The translations under genes were made by a program, and so were the position numbers. A stretch of DNA of 41,320 nt, taken from contig JADHWP010000003.1 in assembly GCA_016783425.1 (NCBI GenBank), positions 1-41,320 on the forward strand, read 5' to 3'. The DNA is from Candidatus Shapirobacteria bacterium. Its GTDB lineage: Bacteria > Patescibacteriota > Microgenomatia > UBA12405 > BS750m-G30. How positions within the stretch are numbered: position 1 is the first letter of the stretch; each line of letters starts with the position of its first letter. This document shows positions 7,822 through 41,320 of this stretch, one piece after another. The notes beneath the pieces were generated by a model, which was not told where the DNA came from, made no database searches, and worked only from the letters and a program-made list of their open reading frames with translations.

Positions 7822-8079
7822 ATGTTAACAACTACTCTTTCCAGTAAAAACCAAGTAACTTTACCTAAATTTTTTCTCCAAATGTTGGGATTAAGCGGAG
7901 GGGACCGACTGTTGATTGAAATAGAAGAAAACCAAATAAACCTTAAGCCAGCTAAAAAAAGCATAATTGACTTACTGGCCAAAAGTATTAAAGTGGCAAA
8001 AAGCAAAAAAGGGGTATCCTTTGAAAAGGCTTTAGCTCACACCAAAAAAACGGTTGCCCGCCAACTTGCAACTCCATGA
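7822..8079 (+). CDS. AbrB/MazE/SpoVT-family antitoxin
   Basis: LSSKNQVTLPK...LGLSGGDRL; ATGA overlap with the PIN gene. Confidence 0.9.
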   Translation: MLTTTLSSKNQVTLPKFFLQMLGLSGGDRLLIEIEENQINLKPAKKSIIDLLAKSIKVAKSKKGVSFEKALAHTKKTVARQLATP

Positions 8080-8489
8080 AAAATACTATCCTGATTGACA
8101 CTAACCTAATTCTCCGCCTCTTGATCGGTGATATTCCCATTCAACTAAAAAAATCCCAGCAGTTATTTAAAAAAATAGAAAATAAAAAAATAACTGGGCT
8201 AATTAGCATTTTAGTAATCAACGAGCTAATCTGGATTTTAGAAAAATTTTACCATCAGAAAAAATCAGAATATATTCCTTTAATTTTAAGGCTAATTTCT
8301 TTAAAAAATACTAAAATATTAGAAATCAAGAAGCAAGAATTAATTCAGATTTTAAGAAAAATGAAAGATGCAAATTTAGATTTTACTGATTTATATTTAC
8401 TTTTCTCCAGCCAAAAACTTAAAAACAAAATTGCCTCATTTGACAAAAAACTAAACTACCACTCGCGTCTTCCAGGCTCAAGTTTTTGA
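8076..8489 (+). CDS. PIN-domain (VapC) toxin
   Basis: LIDTNLILR, INELIWIL, DFTD, SFDKK. Confidence 0.9.
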   Translation: MKNTILIDTNLILRLLIGDIPIQLKKSQQLFKKIENKKITGLISILVINELIWILEKFYHQKKSEYIPLILRLISLKNTKILEIKKQELIQILRKMKDANLDFTDLYLLFSSQKLKNKIASFDKKLNYHSRLPGSSF

Positions 8490-8492
8490 GGA
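8470..8492 (+). repeat. 23-bp direct repeat copy 2 (orphan amrA 3' end, FQAQVFEEE*)
   Basis: Exact match to 7739-7761, continuing GGAATAA to an in-frame stop. Confidence 0.95.
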
Positions 8493-8897
8493 GGAATAAC
8501 GGGTCGGCCTGATAACAACAATGTCTTTCATCGAATAATCTTTAATATTTTTAGTAACTAATTTAAGATTGTAAAGCTTGGCGGTGGCGGCAATTAAGCA
8601 ATCCAATAAATAAACCCGTTTTTTCTTGCGGGCAAATTGCAAACGATAATCACCGGCAATTTCGGCTATTACTTCATCTATCGGCAAAACCCCAAAGCGG
8701 CTTATCAGCAAATTTAGTTTCTCTTTTTCCTCTTTAGAAGCCTTGCTTAAAATCTCTGCCACACTGACAGCGGAAATGGCAATTTCCCCTTTTTTAATCC
8801 AACCCTTGACTAGAGCGGCAACCGGTTCCCTTCCCCAAAAAGACTCCAAAATAACATTAGTGTCCAACAAATACTCAGGAGCGATGGCGATTTTCAT
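8478..8897 (-). CDS. PIN-domain (VapC) toxin
   Basis: LLDTNVI, SVAEI, DCLIAATA, LVTKNIKDY. Confidence 0.92.
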   Translation of the reverse strand: MKIAIAPEYLLDTNVILESFWGREPVAALVKGWIKKGEIAISAVSVAEILSKASKEEKEKLNLLISRFGVLPIDEVIAEIAGDYRLQFARKKKRVYLLDCLIAATAKLYNLKLVTKNIKDYSMKDIVVIRPTRYSSSKT

Positions 8898-20099: not shown

Positions 20100-20743
20100 A
20101 ATTCATATTTCTCCTTTCAATATTTATTTTTCAAGTAGAAACTTTTTCTACTTCTACTTATTTTACCAGGTAAGAACATATTCTTACCTTAATTGACCAA
20201 AAATCAGATTGTTGAGATTAAAAAAGAAAAATCTTGCTCGGTTGATAGGTACAGCTTGGCTTAAACTATTACTAGTCTTACACCGGCTGCCCATGCCCAG
20301 TAGTCTCCTGGGAACCTGATAATGATTCCTAATCTCGGGGTGGGCTTCCCGCTTCAGATGCTTTCAGCGGTTATCCTTTGGAAACATAGCTACCCGACAA
20401 TGCTCTTGACAGAACAATCGGTACACCAGAGGTTTCCCCAACCAGGTCCTCTCGTACTGTGGTCAGCTCCCCTCAAGAATCAACGGTTACTGCGGATAGA
20501 GACCGAGCTGTCTTACGACGCTCTGAACCCAACTAACGCGGCGCTTTAATGGGCGAACAGACCAACCCTTGGCCACTTCTTCATGGCCAGGATGCGCCAA
20601 GTCGACATCGATGTGCCGATCCGGGCCGTCTATATGGACTATCGGGCCCGACCAGCCTGTTATCCCCGGGGTAGTTTTTATCCGTTAAGCCCCATGTTTA
20701 ACCATTCAAGCATGGGGGATCACTAAGACCTGCTTTCGCATCT

Positions 20744-20819
20744 CTCCGACGTAACGTCGGAGTGGTATCACCTTAAATCTCTTCAATCTATTGAATGAAA
20801 GAAATAAAAGGATTAACCA
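20744..20819 (-). other. 76-nt insertion in 23S domain V (near E. coli ~2370)
   Basis: Splits conserved GAGC|AGATGCGAAAGCAGG; forms two hairpins. Confidence 0.75.
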
Positions 20820-21993
20820 GCTCGACTTGTAAGTCTCGCAGTTAGGCTAGCTTCTGGCTTTGCCCTTACAGTTCGGTTTCCATCCGAACTAAGCTAACCT
20901 TTGTACGCTCGCGCTACCTTTTAGCAAGCGGCTGCCCCAGCCAAACTGACCACCAAACACTGTCCCTGTCCGAGTATTCATCGGACTTAGGTGAGACGCA
21001 AACATGATAAAGGGTGGTATTCCACTGGTCTCCGACGTAACGTCGGAGTCCCACCTATTCTCGACAATTACCAAATTCTAATCAATGTTAAGTTTCAGTA
21101 AAACTCCACGGGGTCTTTTTGTCCTGCAGTAACTAACCGGCATATTCACCGGTATTTCAATTTCGCCGGATGAAGGGTCGAGACAGTTGCTCGGTCGTGA
21201 AGCCTTTCATACTGGTCTGAACTTACCAGACAATGGACTTCGCTACCTTTGGATCCTTAGAGTTAGGACCGTCGTTCACCAGGGCTTCAGTTTGAGGCAG
21301 GTCGAAATTTCGACCCACCACGCCCCTTAACCTTCTGGCACCGGACAGGCTTCAGCCCCTATACTTCCCCTTACGGGTTTGCAGAGACCTGTGTTTTTGA
21401 TAAACAGTCGCCGAGCACTCGTTCGCTGCGGCCCCGCAGTTGCGGGGCAAGGCATCTCCCGAAGTTACGCCTAGCTTTTTTGCCGAGTTCCTTGACCCTC
21501 CTTCTTCCGATCGTCTTAGTATACTCAACCTGCCCACCCGTGTCGGTTTTCGGTACGAACGCTATTTTTTCTCCCAACGAAGCTTTTCTGGGTACCAGAA
21601 CCCGATAGGATTTCCCAAACAAGTTTGGAATTCCGGCAAGTCTTACTTTAAAACGGAATGGCGGATTTGCCTACCACTCCTAGCTCAACTAACCGATGCG
21701 GCAATTTCACTGCCACACCCCACCTCTCCCGATACGTCCCTCCCTTGGTAGTAACGAAAAAACAACGGGGCTGGAATATTAACCAGCTGTCCATCCACTA
21801 CCCCCGCATGTTGCGGGACTCATGTTAGGCTCGCCTAACCCTCAGACGACGAACGTGGCTGAGGAAACCTTGGGCTTTCGACGATTTAGATTCTCACTAA
21901 ATTTACGCTACTCATGCCGGCATTCTCGCTTCCCAGCGCTCCACCCCGCCTCACAGCGGGACTTCACTGCCCTGGGAACGCTCCCCTACCAAC

Positions 21994-22160
21994 TCGCTCG
22001 TAGAGCGGGAAATTCCAAATCACAAATTCCAAGATACAAACAATAAATTACAAATCCCCAAGTAATCCAAACTGGATGTTTAGAGATTGGAATTTGGTTA
22101 ATTGTAATTTGTCTGGAATACTTGGTACTTGGTTATTGAAATTTTTTGTTCTACGAACGA
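21994..22160 (-). other. 23S intervening sequence at helix 45 (heptamer-repeat hairpin)
   Basis: Lies between GAACGCTCCCCTACC and TTCGGTG...TTTAGCC; GC clamp plus AAATYHC-type repeats and their complement. Confidence 0.88.
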
Positions 22161-22802
22161 ATTCTCCGTTTTCGGTGGTCTGCTTTAGCCTCGATAAATT
22201 TTCGGCGCAACCTATCCTCCGCCAGTTGGCGGATCGACCAGTGAGCTGTTACGCTTTCTTTAAAGGATGGCTGCCTCTAAGCCAACCTCCTGGCTGTCTA
22301 GGATCGATCACTTCCTTCCCCACTTAGCAAGACACTTAGAGACCTTAAACGGGAGTCTGGGTTGTTTCCCTTTCGCCCAACCAGCTTAGCCCGGCTGGAC
22401 TGACTACCTGATAACACTACTCGGTATTCGGAGTTTGGTTGAACACCGGAGATCGCTCCCCAAATGCTCATTCAGTCGCTCTACCCCCAAGTAGATAAAT
22501 TCAGGCGCTATACCAATATATATTTCGGGGAGAACCAGCTATTTCCAAGTTCGATAAGCATATTACCTCTAACCACAGGTCATCCGAAGGGTTTGCAGCC
22601 CCTACCGGTTCGGGCCTCCTTCCGACTTTCGTCGGAATTCACCCTGCCCATGGTTAGCTCACTTGGTTTCGGGTTTTCCGCCAGCCGCTTATATGTCGCC
22701 TTATTCAGACTCGGTTTCCCTACGCCTCCGGTTTGTAAAAACCTTAGACTTGCGGATGACGAAAACTCGCCGGCTCATTCTTCAATAGGCACGACATTAC
22801 TC

Positions 22803-22961
22803 GCCTGCAGGGCGAGAAAATCACAATATTCAAATAACAAGATCCAAACAAAATTCAAATACCAAAATTCAAACTATGAAATCTTAACATTTGAAATTTG
22901 GAAAATTGGTTATTGTTTGAGATTTGACTATTGGAACTTGAGATTTCCTGGTCCTACAGGC
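22803..22961 (-). other. 23S intervening sequence at helix 25 (heptamer-repeat hairpin)
   Basis: Lies between AGGCACG and GTTTCAG...TTTCACTCCCC; same architecture. Confidence 0.88.
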
Positions 22962-23015
22962 AAGCTCTGTCTGTTTGTTAGCAAATAGTTTCAGATTCTA
23001 TTTCACTCCCCTTCC

Positions 23016-23046
<31 letters not shown>

Positions 23047-23255
23047 ATACGCTATCGGTCAATAAGAGTATTTAGCCTTTCCGGATGGCCCCGGAAGATT
23101 CCCACGAAGTTTTGCGTGTTCCGTGGTACTCAGGTACTCTGGCCAAACTTAGTCAAATTTCATCTACAGGACTTTCACCTTCTTTGGTAGACCAATTCCA
23201 GGCCTTTTGATTATCTTTTCAGTTTGGACTATCAGAGCCCTACAACCCCCACCTC

Positions 23256-23416
23256 GCGCTCCGCGCGAGAAACTCCAAGCTCCAAATTCTAAATCCTAAA
23301 CAAGATCCAAATTACAAATTCAAAATTCCAAAATAATTTTTGGAAATTGAAAATTGATTATTGGCCATTGTTTGGAAATTGAAAATTGAAAATTGAAAAT
23401 TGCTCGTGCGAAGCAC
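23256..23416 (-). other. 23S intervening sequence in a domain I variable helix (~E. coli 270; heptamer-repeat hairpin)
   Basis: Lies between CCTACAACCCC and GGTTTGGGCT; same architecture. Confidence 0.85.
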
Positions 23417-23755
23417 AAAGCAGGTTTGGGCTTCTCCCTTTTCGCTCACCGCTACTAAGGGAATAATTATTATTTTCTTTTCCTCTGGGTACTAAGATGT
23501 TTCAGTTCCCCAGCTTACCCCCCCGACGTTACGTCGGGGTCCTCCGATTCAACATCGAAGGGGGTTATCCCATTCGGACACCGCCGGATCACAGGTTACA
23601 GACACCTCCCCGACGCATATCGCCGTCTGTCGCGTCCTTCTTCGGCTCTTATCACCAAGGCATCCACTATTTGCTTCTTTGCAAGATTCTATCTTTTTTT
23701 TCAACAATCTGATTCTTTAGTCAATTACTTTACTTTTAAGTTGTCAAGGTGCGGG

Positions 23756-23830
23756 TGGACCGAGGCGGGCTCGAACCGCCGACCTGTCCGATGCAAACGG
23801 ACTGCTCTAATCCGACTGAGCTATCGGCCC
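23756..23830 (-). tRNA. tRNA-Ala(TGC), CCA not encoded
   Basis: Acceptor GGGCCGA/TCGGTCC with G3:U70; anticodon arm GTCCG-TTTGCAT-CGGAC. Confidence 0.97.
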
Positions 23831-31687: not shown

Positions 31688-32032
31688 TTAAAATTTTTCT
31701 TTTTCTATGATTTCTTGAACTTCTTTCTTTAAATCCCTGATATCACGAGTTGAAGCATCCCAAATAAGCCCCATGTTGACCCCAAAATAACCGTGAATCA
31801 AAACATCTCTCATGCCAGCAATTTTTCTCCACGGAATTTTTGGATATTTATCCTTAAGTGAAATTGGAATATTCTTTGTGGCTTCACCGATAATTTCTAA
31901 TCTCCTGACAACAGCGTCTTGAATTTGGGTAGACCTTGAAAATTCGTCTTCAGAAACACCCTCAAGATACTTCTCAATTTCAGAAATGCTCTCTAAGATA
32001 TGGGAAAGAAAAATTTTAGGATCTTTTTTCAT
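31688..32032 (-). CDS. HEPN/DUF86 (HepT-like) RNase toxin
   Basis: DAVVRRLEIIGEA, IPW, RDVLIHGY (Rx4HxY). Confidence 0.93.
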   Translation of the reverse strand: MKKDPKIFLSHILESISEIEKYLEGVSEDEFSRSTQIQDAVVRRLEIIGEATKNIPISLKDKYPKIPWRKIAGMRDVLIHGYFGVNMGLIWDASTRDIRDLKKEVQEIIEKEKF

Positions 32033-32309
32033 AAATTATTTCTTGCTCTTTTAAAATAATGTCTTTAAGCAGCGGATGAATACATCCATAGGTTAACAAG
32101 TCAACCCTTCTTTTTAGCATATCTTCAAGATCTAGCTTTAAGCCCACCAAATCCAACAAACTCTTTCTTTCACCATACTCTATTAATAAATCAATATCGC
32201 TGCTTTTTTTCGTATCGCCCCTTGCGCATGATCCAAAAATGGCCGCCTTAACAACTCCTTGGCTTTTTAAAGTAGGAATGATCTTGGCGCTAATATCCTG
32301 GATGGTCAT
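32016..32309 (-). CDS. minimal nucleotidyltransferase (MntA-like) antitoxin
   Basis: FGSCARG...SDIDLL (GSx10DxD), VDL. Confidence 0.93.
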   Translation of the reverse strand: MTIQDISAKIIPTLKSQGVVKAAIFGSCARGDTKKSSDIDLLIEYGERKSLLDLVGLKLDLEDMLKRRVDLLTYGCIHPLLKDIILKEQEIIYEKRS

Positions 32310-34606: not shown

Positions 34607-34664
34607 TAAATCCTAAACTCTAAACACTAAACTCTAATAAATGACTAAATCTTAATCACTAAAC
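34607..34664 (+). repeat. degenerate heptamer array (TAAATCC/TAAACTC/TAAACAC...)
   Basis: About 8 units; resembles one arm of the 23S IVS hairpins. Confidence 0.8.
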
Positions 34665-34823: not shown

Positions 34824-37800
34824 TCACTCTTGAGATGTTTGTGGACCACTTAAAGATGGCGTGACTGGCTCTGATTGCCCTATTACTGGTGTCGGTGTTG
34901 ACGGTTGCGGCGTTAGTGCTGGTGGTGCCGAAGGCAGTGCTGGTGGCGCTACCTGCATCGGCGGCTCTGCTGGCTGGGGCTGCGCCGCTTCCTGGGCTTC
35001 TTTTAATTTGCGCTCCTCTTCTTTCCTTTTTAAAATCTCTTTCGGATCCGAAGTAATTAGTTTGTGCTCCTGGGGAGAAGCAATTATTCTAATGGCTACG
35101 TGATTTTGGCCGGCAAAGAAAATCCCCTCCCCAATGTTAGCGGCCAGCAAAAACTGCCGCTCTCCCTGGGAAAGGTAAAAAAGGTCCCCCACCTGATCAA
35201 TCGCCGCCGGATGCTGTTTAAGTAAAATCTGAATGGAAGAGTTTTTTACAATCGCCCCGCCGTATTTAGAAGTCAAAAAATCATCCACATCTTGAGTAAC
35301 CGTGGTCAAGCCCAAATAATATTTTCGCGCTCTTTTGGCCACCCCAAAAAGAAAACGGGCCGAATCCGGGTAGCGCATCAAATACCAGGCCTCATCAATC
35401 ACCAAAACCCGGCGTTTCAGCTCTTTTCTCACCTTGTTCCAAATAAAATCCAAAATAATGTGCATCGCAATCGGCCGCAGCGCCTCTTCCAAATCCTGGG
35501 TCCCAAAAACCACTAATTTATTTTCAATATTAATATTGGTTTGAGTATTAAAAAGGCCGGCAAAAGCGCCTTTAATAAATTTTTCCAACCGGGCGGCTAA
35601 CGAAGCGGCGGTCTCCTCTTCCATCCCAATCAGCACCTTATAAAGGTCTTCAATCAAGGGCATTTCTTTACCAGTTTGAGTTTCCGGGTCCATAGTAATT
35701 CCCTGGTTTTTATAGGTGGCTACTAAGCCTCTGTCTAAAATCGCTTCTTCTTGAGGAGACATTTTGCCCATAATAATCCGAAACAAAGCATACAAGGAAA
35801 GGATTTTACGGGTCAGCTCATTTTCCCCTTCTTCGGGCTTGATTAGCTCTAAATCAAAGGGATTAATTTTGGCCGGAGAGTTAAAGCCAAAAGTGATGTA
35901 TTGGCCGCCCAAAGCTTGACACAAAGTTTCATACTCATTTTCCGGATCAATCACCATCACTTCAGTATCAAACATTAACGAGCGCAAAGTCTCTAATTTG
36001 ATCATATACGAGTTATGAACAAACATTCCTCCCCGGCCGGCTAAAAAGACCCCGTTATCAACAGTTAAATCATAAACCCAGGGCCGATTATTTTTTAATT
36101 TTTTAACCTTAGTAATCGGGTCCCAAAAAAGACTACTTTCAGCCAAAGTTCGCAACTGGCTTAGAATCATTTTTGCTTTTTGAATCTTTTGCTTTCTTTC
36201 TTCCCAGGTTTTTAAAACATATTTTTTGGCTAAAAATACTTTCTGGTAAGTAAGGTTTGCGTTAGGATTTCTGTTTAAAGCAGAGAAAAATCCTTTGCTA
36301 AAATCTTTCTGATAAACTCCCAAGACCTTAAACGACTCTTTAATATCGCTAACTACCTGGTTAGGAGTCAAGTAAGTTTGAACGGCAATTCTAGAAACAA
36401 TTAAAGCGTTTTTTAATTTTGGCTTAACCTTTTTCTTTTTAGTTACTGCCCAGGAAGAGCCTAAGGCTTGCCAGGCTTGAGCATTAAGCTCCTTATCATT
36501 ACTAACAAGACCAATCATTTCTTCAATAGCCGGCAAATTCTCCAGGCGAGGCTTAACTAAAGTTTGCCATTTTTCTAGTTCATCAATGCGCTTTTCGCAA
36601 TCTTTAATTACTCTCTTTAAAAAGGCGGGAGAAGGATTAAACGCTCTTCTTTTTAAAGCCGAAATGGCCGTGGGAATAGCCACGTTGGTAGTGGGGTAAA
36701 GAATTTTAGCCAACTTACTAAATAAACTTTGGAGCTCGGGAACAATATCAACATTAGTGTTTTCCAGCTTAGTTAAAAGATTAGCCAGGGCCTTCTTTTT
36801 TCTTTGGCTAAAAAAGCTAATATTATCGACAAAATTTTGTAAATGTTTTTTCCCGGAAACAGTTAATTGCCAATAAGTTCGCTTCTTGGGTTTTTTAGAA
36901 CCAACCGCCTGCTTTCTTACTTTTCTAATTCGCGAGACAATACCAAAATAATTAAGCAGATAGCTAAGCTGGCTAATTAATTCTTTTGATTTTGATGTGG
37001 CTGAAACTTGGTGAGCCTCTACTGTTCCATCGCCCTCAAAATAACCTTTGATAAGCTCTGCAATAATTTCTTTAGGTGAAGAAAAAATAACTTCAGGAAC
37101 TTTTTTATTGCCTGCTTTTTGACCAATTCCCAGGCTAATTACTATCTGGGCCAAAAGCCGGCTGGCAAAACGAATCTCTTTATCATGAGGCGAAAAAGAA
37201 TTAAAGCCCAGTTTTCTTCCAATAGCAGCCGCTTTTTTAAGGAGCTTTTTGTCACCCGAGCTAATCGCTATCATTGACGATTGAACGGTTCCCTCGGCCA
37301 CAATCAAACCCAAAAAGAAAGCCAATTCTTTGTCAATCTTCAGCTGGCAACTTAAGCATTTATTTTGCTTAACCCGGGGTCCTAAATAAATATCTTTTAA
37401 TTGATTTTTACTTAACTTAATTTGGGTTTGCTCGCAACACCAATTAAAAAAGCTAATTGGCACTCCTCGATCCTGAACATATTTATAAAAATAACAAAAC
37501 AAGGAATGCTTTTTACCTTTTAATTGCTCCCTAAATTGAGTCATTAAAGGAACAGCATTATAAACAAAAAGATTAGGACTTTTTTCCAAAAGCTTTAAAA
37601 GATTAACCTTTTGAAAAAGAGAAGCGCTTGTTCCAATTTGGCGCGCTAAAGGAACAAATTCCCCCGTCGTAACTGCTTCTCCCTTGCTTAAATTCAGTTC
37701 TCCATTTTTTAAAACCACTAAATTATGATCGCCGGTAATCGTCATTTGCCGGCCGGAGGCGGTAGTAATTTGATAAAGATCGTCAGGAGCTACTTTTCGC

Positions 37801-38771
37801 GCGGCAACCGTTACCTTTGACCACTCGGTTTTAAGTTTAGAGTTAAAAGTATAGACCTCCAAACCCGGCGGGAAAATTACTCCCTTTATTTCCTCATCTA
37901 TGCTGACTGTTTTATGTTTTTTCATCAGCTTATTAATTAAAGGGCCAATGGCGGTTAGTTTTATTTCCCCGTCTTGGCGAATCAACACCGGCTCAAATCC
38001 AGCCAGACTTTTCCCCGCCCCGGATTTGGCAAAAACCACGGTATTGTAATTCTCCATGGTAAACCGGTCAAAAACGACTAAAGAACCGTTGTGCTGATTA
38101 ATTCCGTACATAATCCCTTTATCATCAGAAAGCTCCGAAGAAACAAAGGGGAAAGTGGTTGATAGCGTAGCGGTGGGCATGTTTCGGGTGACATTTAGAT
38201 CGTCCTTGCACAAAGGAAGCACGGTTCTAAACCCTTCTTCCATTTCCAAAATGGCTGTTTTCGGAATAATCATCAAGGCCCCCAGCGAGGCCTGCAACTC
38301 TTTGCTGATCCGGTCCAGTTCAGCCACTGATTCCGCCGAAACGGTAATGTAAAGCCCAAATTGAAAAAACTTTTCCACCCCTTTGGCCAACTTTTCCTGC
38401 AAAGACAGCGCATCTTCCAACTTGGCCTGGGTCGTGGGATCAACTACTTTGCCTCGCTGGATATCAGTAGAAATTTCTGCTTCCATCCGGGCAATAGTTT
38501 TGCGCATTTCGTCCAAAACCCCCTTGCCTTCCACCGGGTAAATATACATCGCAATATCCAGCTCCCGATCAAAATTAACTAAAGGAGAGAGCCAGTTGGG
38601 CGAAACATACCGCGGGTAATTAACCACGTAAAAAGTGCGGTGAAAACGATTATTAATCCGCAAGTAGTTAAAGTCTACTTCTACGGCCGAGGGAGCGATT
38701 ATGTCCTTAATCGTGACCAGGCCCGGAGCCAGGGCTGAAGGCGGAAGTACAGCCTTATCCTTAAATTTCAT
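34824..38771 (-). CDS. VirB4-like (DUF87) ATPase containing an intein
   Basis: Walker A AKSGAGK|S, VIDPENEY, INPFD, Walker B VIDEAW, KRARKY, TQD; Pro-rich tail. Confidence 0.93.
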   Translation of the reverse strand: MKFKDKAVLPPSALAPGLVTIKDIIAPSAVEVDFNYLRINNRFHRTFYVVNYPRYVSPNWLSPLVNFDRELDIAMYIYPVEGKGVLDEMRKTIARMEAEISTDIQRGKVVDPTTQAKLEDALSLQEKLAKGVEKFFQFGLYITVSAESVAELDRISKELQASLGALMIIPKTAILEMEEGFRTVLPLCKDDLNVTRNMPTATLSTTFPFVSSELSDDKGIMYGINQHNGSLVVFDRFTMENYNTVVFAKSGAGKSLAGFEPVLIRQDGEIKLTAIGPLINKLMKKHKTVSIDEEIKGVIFPPGLEVYTFNSKLKTEWSKVTVAARKVAPDDLYQITTASGRQMTITGDHNLVVLKNGELNLSKGEAVTTGEFVPLARQIGTSASLFQKVNLLKLLEKSPNLFVYNAVPLMTQFREQLKGKKHSLFCYFYKYVQDRGVPISFFNWCCEQTQIKLSKNQLKDIYLGPRVKQNKCLSCQLKIDKELAFFLGLIVAEGTVQSSMIAISSGDKKLLKKAAAIGRKLGFNSFSPHDKEIRFASRLLAQIVISLGIGQKAGNKKVPEVIFSSPKEIIAELIKGYFEGDGTVEAHQVSATSKSKELISQLSYLLNYFGIVSRIRKVRKQAVGSKKPKKRTYWQLTVSGKKHLQNFVDNISFFSQRKKKALANLLTKLENTNVDIVPELQSLFSKLAKILYPTTNVAIPTAISALKRRAFNPSPAFLKRVIKDCEKRIDELEKWQTLVKPRLENLPAIEEMIGLVSNDKELNAQAWQALGSSWAVTKKKKVKPKLKNALIVSRIAVQTYLTPNQVVSDIKESFKVLGVYQKDFSKGFFSALNRNPNANLTYQKVFLAKKYVLKTWEERKQKIQKAKMILSQLRTLAESSLFWDPITKVKKLKNNRPWVYDLTVDNGVFLAGRGGMFVHNSYMIKLETLRSLMFDTEVMVIDPENEYETLCQALGGQYITFGFNSPAKINPFDLELIKPEEGENELTRKILSLYALFRIIMGKMSPQEEAILDRGLVATYKNQGITMDPETQTGKEMPLIEDLYKVLIGMEEETAASLAARLEKFIKGAFAGLFNTQTNINIENKLVVFGTQDLEEALRPIAMHIILDFIWNKVRKELKRRVLVIDEAWYLMRYPDSARFLFGVAKRARKYYLGLTTVTQDVDDFLTSKYGGAIVKNSSIQILLKQHPAAIDQVGDLFYLSQGERQFLLAANIGEGIFFAGQNHVAIRIIASPQEHKLITSDPKEILKRKEEERKLKEAQEAAQPQPAEPPMQVAPPALPSAPPALTPQPSTPTPVIGQSEPVTPSLSGPQTSQE
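36012..38009 (-). mobile_element. intein (666 aa) with LAGLIDADG homing endonuclease
   Basis: Begins SLAGFEPV; block B TITGDHNL; FFLGLIVAEG and LIKGYFEGDG; ends VYDLTV...FVHN followed by extein Ser. Confidence 0.93.
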
Positions 38772-39516: not shown

Positions 39517-40344
39517 TCAAACCAGCGCCGTCTTTTTGGCTTGAATCTGTAACGGCGCAATAATTTTACCCTCGGCTTGAATTTTAATTATAGCAAAGGC
39601 GTAAGGATCTTTTTCTACCAAAACCAAGTATTGCCCATTGGGCAAGGGGGTAGCGGTTTGGAACTGGCCCAAAAAGCTGGTGCGCATCGCCCTGATCGGG
39701 TTTCCTTCCAGATCCTGAATTTCGACAATTGCTCCTTCTATCGCTCTGCCTTCCGAATCCATTACCAAACCATTAATAATATTGGGAGTGGTGGGAGTCG
39801 CGGGCAAAACCATTTTTAAGTACTCTGGAAAAGTAGAAATAATCTCTCCCCTGGGAGTACCGCCCTGTTTAATCATTTGAATAATTTCTTCAGAAGAGGG
39901 AGTAACTGGCTGTTCTCGCGTTACTGGCGCTGTGGCTACTGGCTTTTCTTTTTTAACCGAAGCTTTTACCCCGGCATCAGCAGTTTTAATCGAAGGCGCA
40001 AATACCTGAACAGGAGCAGGAACGGGCAGAGCCTTATAAGCTACCGGTTGAGGGGAAAAGGGTTTTTTCCAGGTAAAAATGGTGGGCGAATAAGCCGCTC
40101 TGAAAAAAGAAAGCAGCCAAAACTCCAGGGGTTTTTCGTTAAAAGGGATAAAGGCGGTCCCAATTCCTAATAATAATAAAGTTAAACTTAGGGGAATTTT
40201 TAAAATAAAAGTCAAGCCGGAGCGAAAAACAAGGTAAGAAAATACCAGGCCGGCCGCCAGTTTTAAAAACTGCTTTAAAGTCATGCTTCCTACCAGCCGA
40301 AACTCGTAAGAAGATATTTCCTGCGGTATTGGACACTGCTCCAT
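39517..40344 (-). CDS. PrgI family protein with C-terminal carboxypeptidase-regulatory-like domain
   Basis: PIPQ.I..YEFRLVGSMTLKQF plus 2 TM; C-terminal G.V.D..G.AIEGAIVEI...T...GQF. Confidence 0.85.
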   Translation of the reverse strand: MEQCPIPQEISSYEFRLVGSMTLKQFLKLAAGLVFSYLVFRSGLTFILKIPLSLTLLLLGIGTAFIPFNEKPLEFWLLSFFRAAYSPTIFTWKKPFSPQPVAYKALPVPAPVQVFAPSIKTADAGVKASVKKEKPVATAPVTREQPVTPSSEEIIQMIKQGGTPRGEIISTFPEYLKMVLPATPTTPNIINGLVMDSEGRAIEGAIVEIQDLEGNPIRAMRTSFLGQFQTATPLPNGQYLVLVEKDPYAFAIIKIQAEGKIIAPLQIQAKKTALV

Positions 40345-40353
40345 TATTTAAAG

Positions 40354-40381
40354 TTAAAAGTTAAAAGTTAAAAGTTAAAAG
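40354..40381 (+). repeat. (TTAAAAG)4 tandem repeat just upstream of prgI
   Basis: Four perfect 7-mers plus partial flanking units. Confidence 0.92.
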
Positions 40382-40437
40382 TTTTTTCTTACTCATACTT
40401 AATTCATATTACAATAGTAACTCCTCGCCTTCAAGAT

Positions 40438-40558
40438 GAGCGCAGAGGGGCAAGCACGCCCAAATTCTAAAATCTTATTATTTTGGAAATTGAAAAATTG
40501 ATTATTGCTTGGAGCACTTGTTATTTGGAGCTTGGAAATTTCTCCTCGGGAGGCGCTT
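40438..40558. repeat. intergenic relative of the 23S heptamer IVS
   Basis: 40481-40507 matches 23338-23363 with one indel; 40523-40536 is the exact reverse complement of 23274-23287. Confidence 0.8.
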
Positions 40559-40664
40559 CAGAATTTTTTAAAATTGTATACCCTGCCAAAAATTGGTAAA
40601 ATCAAAAATAAAATAGTTATTAAAATTTTGGCAATTAATATTTGAAAGGAGGTGGAAAAAGAAT

Positions 40665-41054
40665 ATGACTGAACAACCACAACCACGAGAAAAAACTGCT
40701 ATAGCTCTTGAATTTTTGCAAGAAGAGCCCAGCCCCGAAGACTTAATGCATATTGAAAAAAAATATAGTGGTAAACACCTAGTTGATGTTATTATTGAAT
40801 CAATGACCATAGGACTTACTAGGCCAGAAACGATTAGAGACTTTCTTTCAACGGTGCCTGATAGCTTAATGACTCCCTATATGCGATATGGCTGGCTTTC
40901 TGCTGCATGTGGGCGTTACGTTAGCGAAGGTACTAAACATTCTCAAGATATGATTCCGCCTCAAGATGTTAAAAAATATGGAGGTTTAAAAGAAAGTTTT
41001 GCGTTATTAGCACATCAAGAAAAAATAAAACTCGAAGCTCCAGCAGGAGAGTAA
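40665..41054 (+). CDS. hypothetical protein
   Basis: 129-aa ORF with an AAAGGAGGTG RBS. Confidence 0.78.
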   Translation: MTEQPQPREKTAIALEFLQEEPSPEDLMHIEKKYSGKHLVDVIIESMTIGLTRPETIRDFLSTVPDSLMTPYMRYGWLSAACGRYVSEGTKHSQDMIPPQDVKKYGGLKESFALLAHQEKIKLEAPAGE

Positions 41055-41165
41055 AACTCACCTCTAAGGAGAAACTCCGCCAGGAATGATAGAATTCAAC
41101 TAATAAAGGGTGGATTTTTAATTCAGGAGGCGTTTTTGCCGTGGTTGCGAGCTTACTCCCTATTT

Positions 41166-41320
41166 TTAGGAATTTGTAAAAACTACTTTTCTTTTTTTTG
41201 AAAAAAGGACATTGAAGGCCTCCAAAAAACCAAGCCTCCCCATCAGGGGAGGAACTTCGTCACTATCCAAAACCGCTAAGGGTATTTTTTTCTTCCATTT
41301 ACCTAAGCGAATAGGAAATT
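41166..41320 (-). CDS. C-terminus of probable retropepsin-like aspartic protease (partial)
   Basis: Not in ORF track. Reads FPIRLGKWKKKIPLAVLDSDEVPPLMGRLGFLEAFNVLFSKKRKVVFTNS*; LMGR.GF matches the retropepsin LLGR motif. Confidence 0.6.
   Translation of the reverse strand, partial: FPIRLGKWKKKIPLAVLDSDEVPPLMGRLGFLEAFNVLFSKKRKVVFTNS

Follow-up and report, generated by a model that had tools for sequence, protein, structure and literature searches.

IVSs that are excised from 23S rRNA by RNase III have been described at helices 25 and 45 in Salmonella, in Leptospira, and at helix 45 in Coxiella, in which the insert carries an S23p ORF and the excision of such inserts by RNase III is established (PMC4990558). 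The origin of IVSs is called unclear in that account, and dispersed copies are not mentioned in its passages on these inserts (PMC4990558). In the rRNA of CPR bacteria, short unclassified insertions have been reported at the sites 23IS2 and 23IS4, IVP genes were found scattered over several insertion sites, and the short inserts were left uncharacterised (Tsurumaki et al., 2024, PMC11270868). The main text of the latter study does not contain the words "repeat" or "hairpin" and draws no link to genomic repeats, and its supplements may list the sequences considered here (PMC11270868). In the literature that we searched, which lay mostly outside subscription journals, no paper linking IVSs to dispersed genomic repeats was found.

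Outside rRNA, the repeat family described in the present study appears, by analogy, to behave like the Rickettsia palindromic elements (RPEs), including in-frame copies inside conserved proteins. RPEs are also inserted into tmRNA and RNase P RNA. The STRR and small dispersed repeats of cyanobacteria are comparable intergenic repeats built of 7-base units, and REP/REPIN sequences with RAYT are non-autonomous hairpin repeats that have nested forms and produce no target duplication. Further likenesses to RPEs are a palindromic structure of 100 to 150 nt, lineage-specific bursts, an intergenic as well as in-frame location, and the lack of an encoded enzyme (PMC1779305); the two are set apart by description, since RPEs are not described in that source with heptamer arrays, four-helix-bundle cassettes, or insertion into rRNA helices (PMC1779305). 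The heptamer tandem repeats of Beggiatoaceae, cyanobacteria, and Bacteroidetes are likewise 7-base, intergenic, and strain-specific, with a mechanism that is not known (PMC4679880); those repeats are mainly direct, whereas the arrays found here are inverted, fold into hairpins in which the loop is conserved, and are also inserted in rRNA.

The DNA analysed here, referred to as the window, is a stretch of 41,320 nt that constitutes contig C28 of a Candidatus Shapirobacteria genome of 624 kb in 33 contigs (90% complete), whose size and rRNA inserts fit a CPR (Patescibacteria) bacterium. Its 23S rRNA gene (20228-23688, reverse strand; Rfam RF02541, 2333 bits) hosts three long AT-rich inserts in the Rfam alignment, at positions which, from the model and from E. 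coli numbering, we take to be helices 15, 25, and 45. All on the reverse strand, the helix-15 insert spans 23251-23422 (172 nt with caps, core 23272-23404) as an insert of the Rfam alignment, the helix-25 insert spans 22800-22963 (approximately 164 nt with imperfect caps, core 22815-22948) as a profile match, and the helix-45 insert spans 21994-22159 (approximately 166 nt with caps, ends approximate, core 22008-22146). The first two have fold z-scores of -7.05 and -8.2, respectively. In a congener (G001, same genus; 618,716 of approximately 700,000 bases compared), the inserts are absent and short helices are present at all three sites, namely a 14-nt helix at helix 15, a 13-nt hairpin top at helix 25, and a short helix at helix 45; an insert takes the place of a 12- to 14-nt hairpin top, with no duplication at the three junctions. 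Besides the 23S gene, a tRNA-Ala gene is present (20228-23830 together) without 16S or 5S in the window, and an AT-rich stretch of approximately 55 nt in 23S domain V (about 20770-20830), beside a small palindrome, is possibly another short insert.

The three inserts conform to what is understood by an IVS in that each is an extra stem-loop that replaces the top of a variable helix and is sporadic among close relatives; the replacement of a short helix top by a long stem-loop at helices 25 and 45 and the patchy distribution are as in classical IVSs. Heptamer repeats upstream of the S23p ORF and related four-helix-bundle genes are points of likeness to the Coxiella IVS (PMC4990558), and the inserts share with those reported by Tsurumaki et al. 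their lineage, shortness, lack of an ORF, and location at known IVS sites, the latter inserts having been judged to be probably of the RNase III type (PMC11270868). Unlike classical IVSs, those found here are gene-less, occur at more helices, bear paired GC caps, and have relatives dispersed outside rRNA. An RNase III gene was found in the genome, and it is likely, by analogy with the known systems, that RNase III cuts the rRNA copies out without ligation. Of 24 RNA sequencing runs considered, none contained half of the words, and the four that were mapped at 88% likeness matched relatives only and left every bin inside the inserts uncovered.

The stretch with which the present study began, 40438-40558, is not an IVS because it lies outside rRNA, between a prgI-like gene (39517-40344, reverse strand), the product of which matches the PrgI domain below the Pfam cut-off, and an orphan ORF of 129 aa (40665-41054, forward strand). 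It has no Rfam match at E ≤ 1, an ORF is absent from it and from all three 23S inserts, and its 121 nt are not more stably folded than shuffled sequence (z -0.89). A profile search located in it, at 40461-40543 on the forward strand, the loop and right arm of a heptamer hairpin repeat, and this segment reads as a real element, a truncated half-copy of a non-coding hairpin repeat built of 7-base units. That most of the left arm was missing had been noted in the initial annotation and was borne out, as were two matches to the helix-15 insert, of which one joins 40481-40507 to 23338-23363 on the same strand (26 of 27 columns, E 2e-4 in the genome) and the other pairs the 14 nt of 40523-40536 with 23274-23287 as an exact reverse complement (E 0.2 alone). 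The match to the domain I IVS on which that annotation relied is real, and the close relationship that it claimed was overstated; when 41 genomes were searched, the best 11 non-self matches of the stretch all proved to be non-rRNA copies of its own genome, and the helix-15 insert ranked only 12th.

Heptamer runs inflate similarity, which dinucleotide shuffles control only partly, and heptamer-block shuffles were also used. None of 1000 dinucleotide shuffles and 3 of 1000 heptamer-block shuffles attained the local score of 53 between the helix-15 insert and the stretch, and the score of 55 for the helix-25 insert, which also lies in domain I and had not been named in the initial annotation, was attained by none of the 1000 in either control. 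The similarity therefore holds against low-complexity controls at helices 15 and 25; the helix-45 insert (score 29, heptamer-block p 0.21) was not above the shuffles. Among 29 insert cores collected from the order, the two best matches to the stretch are the helix-15 and helix-25 inserts of its own genome.

On the side of the prgI-like gene, the stretch borders on a conserved flank (40400-40441, reverse strand; 90% over 42 nt in the congener), which is likely to be the promoter region of that gene. On the other side, a promoter-like cassette ahead of the orphan ORF (40552-40612, forward strand) was recognised from repeat matches and hexamers; TTGTAT (40574-40579) is followed after 17 nt by TAAAAT (40597-40602) with TG before it, a promoter reading made by eye for a cassette that a consensus scan did not flag. 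Seven other matches to this cassette were found at E ≤ 3e-4 on C1, C8, C9, C10 (two), and C19 (two), and none in the 618,716 congener bases searched. Between the arm and the cassette lies a half copy of a GC-rich REP-like palindrome (40542-40556, forward strand) with the core CCTCGGGRG, which belongs to a separate repeat family, and the C9 copy is colinear with the stretch from the arm through the REP half to the cassette. The copy in the stretch, having lost its partner arm and not folding, is likely to be a neutral, inert relic between two divergent promoter regions.

A GC clamp had been proposed for this stretch, and its letters are present as GAGCGC (40438-40443) and GCGCTT (40553-40558); as a feature or as the end of an element it was rejected, since GAGC runs on from the flank that is conserved in the congener and GGCGCTT opens the promoter-like cassette, which also occurs where there is no hairpin at all (C1, C8, and C4:6282). 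Cassette copies were located at C1:15231-15282, C8:7151-7176, C9:7308-7349, C10:20571-20609, C19:11613-11660, and C19:12869-12901, and short orphan ORFs stand behind the C9 copy and that at 40552-40612. Elsewhere in the window, an AAAAGTT heptamer run is present at the start of the prgI-like gene (40350-40383), where the congener has a different heptamer run, and another run follows the start region of a PBP gene (34607-34655). Two genes from the prgI-like gene, a VirB4/TraG-like ATPase with an intein and a LAGLIDADG domain occupies 34824-38771, and toxin-antitoxin-like modules comprise a HepT/nucleotidyltransferase pair (31688-32309) and two PIN-domain genes (7822-8897). The end of the window (41164-41320) overlaps the start of C11 (157 nt, 99.4%), and the two contigs probably join.

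The initial annotation supposed that the IVS family is dispersed and not confined to rRNA, and further copies were indeed numerous. With a profile built from seven intergenic copies, from which the stretch and every rRNA copy were left out, the stretch scored 60 bits (E 9e-17) and the inserts at helices 25, 45, and 15 scored 45 (E 4e-12), 24 (E 2e-5), and 18 bits, respectively. At E ≤ 0.01, 23 merged loci were found including the seven seeds, with three in rRNA, one in an open frame, and 19 away from long ORFs, and the reversed genome returned a single match at E 0.97. Complete copies are imperfect hairpins of 120 to 190 nt in which a short loop joins a left arm of A/C-rich heptamers to a right arm rich in T and G, frequently with nested GC palindromes; the stretch itself is 88% identical to C25:3020-3099 over 81 nt. 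The intergenic copies have no consistent strand bias (8 of 17 fold better in the family orientation). Open frames run through the copies at C12:8950, C12:26304, and C16:11600, which, from the motifs around them, presumably lie in a LeuRS-like gene, an intein-like stretch, and a glycosyltransferase-like gene, respectively. In-frame heptamer elements were seen at C12:8950-9060, C12:26270-26395, C16:11570-11700, and C12:17740-17830, and the congener carries another heptamer run at the LeuRS-like site. A generic heptamer-run detector, which mixes several families, found 51 runs in the genome and 1 to 8 in three shuffles.

In a tree of 21 rows, the stretch grouped with 10 non-rRNA copies (support 91/81), with the helix-25 insert as their sister (89/80), and the helix-15 and helix-45 inserts each paired with a different intergenic copy, that of the helix-15 insert being C6:68822 (84/87). 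No branch was starred, and a single clade for the three inserts was not rejected (AU p 0.07). The three inserts are not each other's nearest neighbours. When 41 genomes were searched, intergenic copies of the same genome ranked first for the helix-25 insert (89% over 57 nt to C25:3050-3106) and for the helix-45 insert, for which they provided the two best non-self matches, and the helix-15 insert matched best in a genome of another family (G039), with an own-genome copy next.

Two small palindromes were also traced through the genome. One is a 16-nt GC palindrome in the 23S gene (22218-22233, reverse strand; 21 genome matches, 0 in shuffles), which is also embedded in copies of the intergenic hairpin, in REP-like repeats, and in coding frames, and is lacking at the site in the congener. 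The other forms a 23S helix (23523-23537; 11 genome matches, three of them in the 23S gene, 0 in shuffles), recurs at 20746 and 21032 and in the loops of three intergenic hairpin copies, and occupies a site common to the congener. A 15-nt palindrome forms several helices within one 23S, four or five in G004 (L015) and two in G002 (L009), a sign of rRNA-helix homogenisation.

Comparisons with the congener, which has no match to the stretch, agree with the earlier suggestion that the element is mobile. Both flanks were found there for 14 of the 38 loci queried, and by visual reading of the junctions the element was absent at six, replaced by another heptamer run or hairpin at five, shared at two, and not a real element at one. 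An empty site was looked for upstream of prgI; the congener instead has a different, complete heptamer hairpin after the same left flank. The prgI site was compared in 20 loci including our own, one of them without upstream DNA; in three further members of the family, a short plain spacer leads to another divergent gene, with junctions that cannot be aligned, and approximately six more distant genomes have other palindromic repeats by eye. The spacer upstream of prgI in L039, L042, L043, L044, L047, and L048 contains differing palindromic repeat types, by eye like a recurrent landing site. Similar elements also stand before what we take from its motif to be an L11-like ribosomal protein gene, in our genome (C6:30560-30720) and in L196 of another family (G038:C9:2256-2381), with the congener empty. 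Target-site duplications, which were also looked for, were not found; the rRNA flanks are well conserved, and most intergenic flanks are too diverged (approximately 67 to 81%) to tell.

Across the order, 30 23S loci from the 36 genomes with a match among 41 were examined, and at least 31 inserts of 90 nt or more were present in 16 of them; this is a lower bound, many sites having been missed by the anchors (at helix 25, 16 of 30). Inserts were found at helices 10, 12, 15, 25, and 45, in domain V, and in 16S. Permutation tests were performed on 29 cores, two shorter than 40 nt having been dropped from the 31. Pairs from the same genome had a mean score of 74 versus 35 overall (0 of 5000 permutations; median p 0.0008), with kin not independent, and helix position gave no signal in core similarity (p 0.94, 29 cores). 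The same-genome signal comes largely from three genomes, without which the means were 39 versus 27 (9 versus 162 pairs), and the nearest insert was from the same genome in only 7 of 24 cases. When five helix-25 inserts of other genomes were searched symmetrically against their five genomes, three had their best match in that genome outside the 23S locus and in non-rRNA DNA, and two had no non-self match at E ≤ 1e-6. Near-identical copies were seen in two relatives. The helix-25 insert of G039 shares 96 to 97% identity with copies in 16S and at other helices of the 23S gene, 94% with one in intergenic DNA, and 91% with one beside tmRNA. The G027 23S gene has the same 104-nt insert, caps included, at two helices, for which assembly collapse is possible.

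We therefore favour, with a probability of roughly 0.65, the reading that the stretch is a truncated member of a family of approximately 20 copies, with three more in the 23S gene, which is copied from site to site within the genome, rRNA helices included. The rRNA inserts are likely to have been copied within the genome from or to intergenic repeats. That the stretch belongs to the family, how many copies there are, how patchily they occur in the two congeners, and that near-identical copies recur in rRNA helices and intergenic DNA of relatives has been shown; the direction of copying, the enzyme, the parent, and the excision are matters of inference. The exchange between intergenic DNA and rRNA helices that the initial annotation envisaged agrees with this, in that own-genome non-rRNA copies are the best non-self matches for two of the three inserts.

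The direction of this traffic may be questioned on the basis of the caps. Each rRNA insert stands between a pair of GC-rich triloop hairpins, which are both perfect in 21 of 31, and the outer cap halves pair with each other (74 Watson-Crick, 21 G-U, 1 A-C, and 19 other positions, the last being mostly a helix-10 register shift by eye). With the base of the helix included, folding was better for the rRNA strand than for its complement in 29 of 31 inserts. Under a strict test, both caps are present in our genome only at helix 15, those of helices 25 and 45 being imperfect, and the insert-free helix 45 of L008 and L010 has a single cap-like hairpin, which is either a precursor or a deletion remnant. 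Among non-rRNA copies of the genome, GC hairpins stand on both sides in 0 of 18 and on one side in 4 of 18, as would be expected if the inserts were the source, spreading in capped form between helices and between species through recombination of rRNA and releasing in abundance, through a cut inside the caps, an uncapped core that is occasionally copied into intergenic DNA. The recurrence of the same cap sequences at different helices and in different families and the duplication of whole capped units between helices also speak for such a reverse flow, which accords with the textbook view of a horizontal spread of IVSs (PMC4990558, PMC11270868). Nevertheless, we regard it as unlikely; the reverse transcriptase domain PF00078 was not found in the 90%-complete genome, the in-frame and nested copies show turnover of the family away from rRNA, and the tree neighbour of the helix-15 insert, the intergenic copy C6:68822, is common to the congener, which is without the insert, a weak hint for the opposite direction.

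Less probable still is that a Y1 (RAYT-like) transposase mobilises the hairpins in trans, as non-autonomous elements in the manner of REPINs. RAYT-class enzymes are not expected to leave a target duplication. The REP-like palindrome has 48 matches in the genome versus 2 to 5 in three shuffles, its CCTCGGGRG core also flanks the single Y1 transposase gene of the genome, on C6, and half a REP abuts the copy in the stretch, the C9 copy, and the hairpin of the congener at the prgI site, which the core directly follows. However, most complete copies are without a REP at their ends, their arms are unlike the flanks of the Y1 transposase, and the half REP goes with the promoter-like cassette that follows it; unlike in REP/REPIN systems, the REP-like sequence is only an adjacent 15-nt half palindrome beside a heptamer hairpin. 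Multiple non-coding copies with insertion polymorphism were found, as for a MITE, and the stretch does not read as a classical MITE since it has neither a target duplication nor cognate ends, the latter as found with the one Y1 transposase examined. Convergence without any movement, through heptamer slippage and template-switch fold-back at many sites, would be in keeping with the low-complexity arms, the different heptamers at orthologous sites, and a helix-45 match not above heptamer-block shuffles, but it is highly improbable and, for the main subfamily, largely refuted by the non-periodic loop sequence and nested GC modules that copies have in common in register, the 104 identical nt and 91 to 97% identities between distant sites in relatives, and the scores at helices 15 and 25.

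Regarding the parent of the copied family that we favour, three genes for PF05635 four-helix-bundle proteins ("23S IVS protein") are present on other contigs of the genome, each with inverted repeat flanks, and across the order such flanks were found at 23 of 28 scored PF05635 genes in a test on 30 loci taken from a longer list of matches. Unlike these cassettes, the stretch has no gene between its arms. For 25 of the 29 insert cores, the flank that matched best came from the LEER-motif subfamily (15 of 48 loci), and the match of 26 of the 29 to cassette flanks exceeded that of all 20 of their dinucleotide shuffles. The helix-15 insert aligns with the arm of its own genome's C15 cassette up to the gene start, and at L154 (G026:C13) an apparent early variable helix of 16S contains, by eye, a four-helix-bundle gene together with its heptamer arms and GC caps. 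The subfamily profile of the stretch matched 49 cassette loci only weakly (best E 0.008), and in only 3 of the 27 inserts was a cassette flank from the same genome ranked highest, a pairing that was not significant (permutation p 0.086). PF13366, a GxxExxY-type nuclease fold, was not found in the 90%-complete genome.

Based on these comparisons, the hairpins are somewhat more probably than otherwise gene-less deletion derivatives of cassettes in which one PF05635 subfamily stands between inverted heptamer arms. Their movement may have been a recombinational copy-in that replaces a hairpin top or spacer without target duplication, a step to which we give even odds. In rRNA, it seems fairly probable that a copy would be tolerated at variable helices once two GC caps bracket it, the outer halves rebuilding the base of the helix, and that RNase III would excise the AU-rich core and leave fragmented 23S rRNA. 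More tentatively, and as a possibility that we would not yet rely on, gene-less IVSs may, rather than being ancient passengers bound to rRNA, be continually regenerated from the genome's own pool of heptamer hairpins, as miniatures of a single four-helix-bundle cassette subfamily whose protein helps to move them, with the GC caps serving as an adaptor for life in rRNA that seals the fragment ends after RNase III.

The stretch itself is only a decayed half-copy. What is new here lies in the comparison with the congener, the test of genome against helix, the near-identical copies shared between sites, and the contrast in caps. A candidate parent can be named in one four-helix-bundle subfamily, and the cap motif separates rRNA copies from intergenic copies. 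That one genome can contain near-identical copies both within its rRNA and away from it makes the idea that IVSs are remnants of mobile elements testable.
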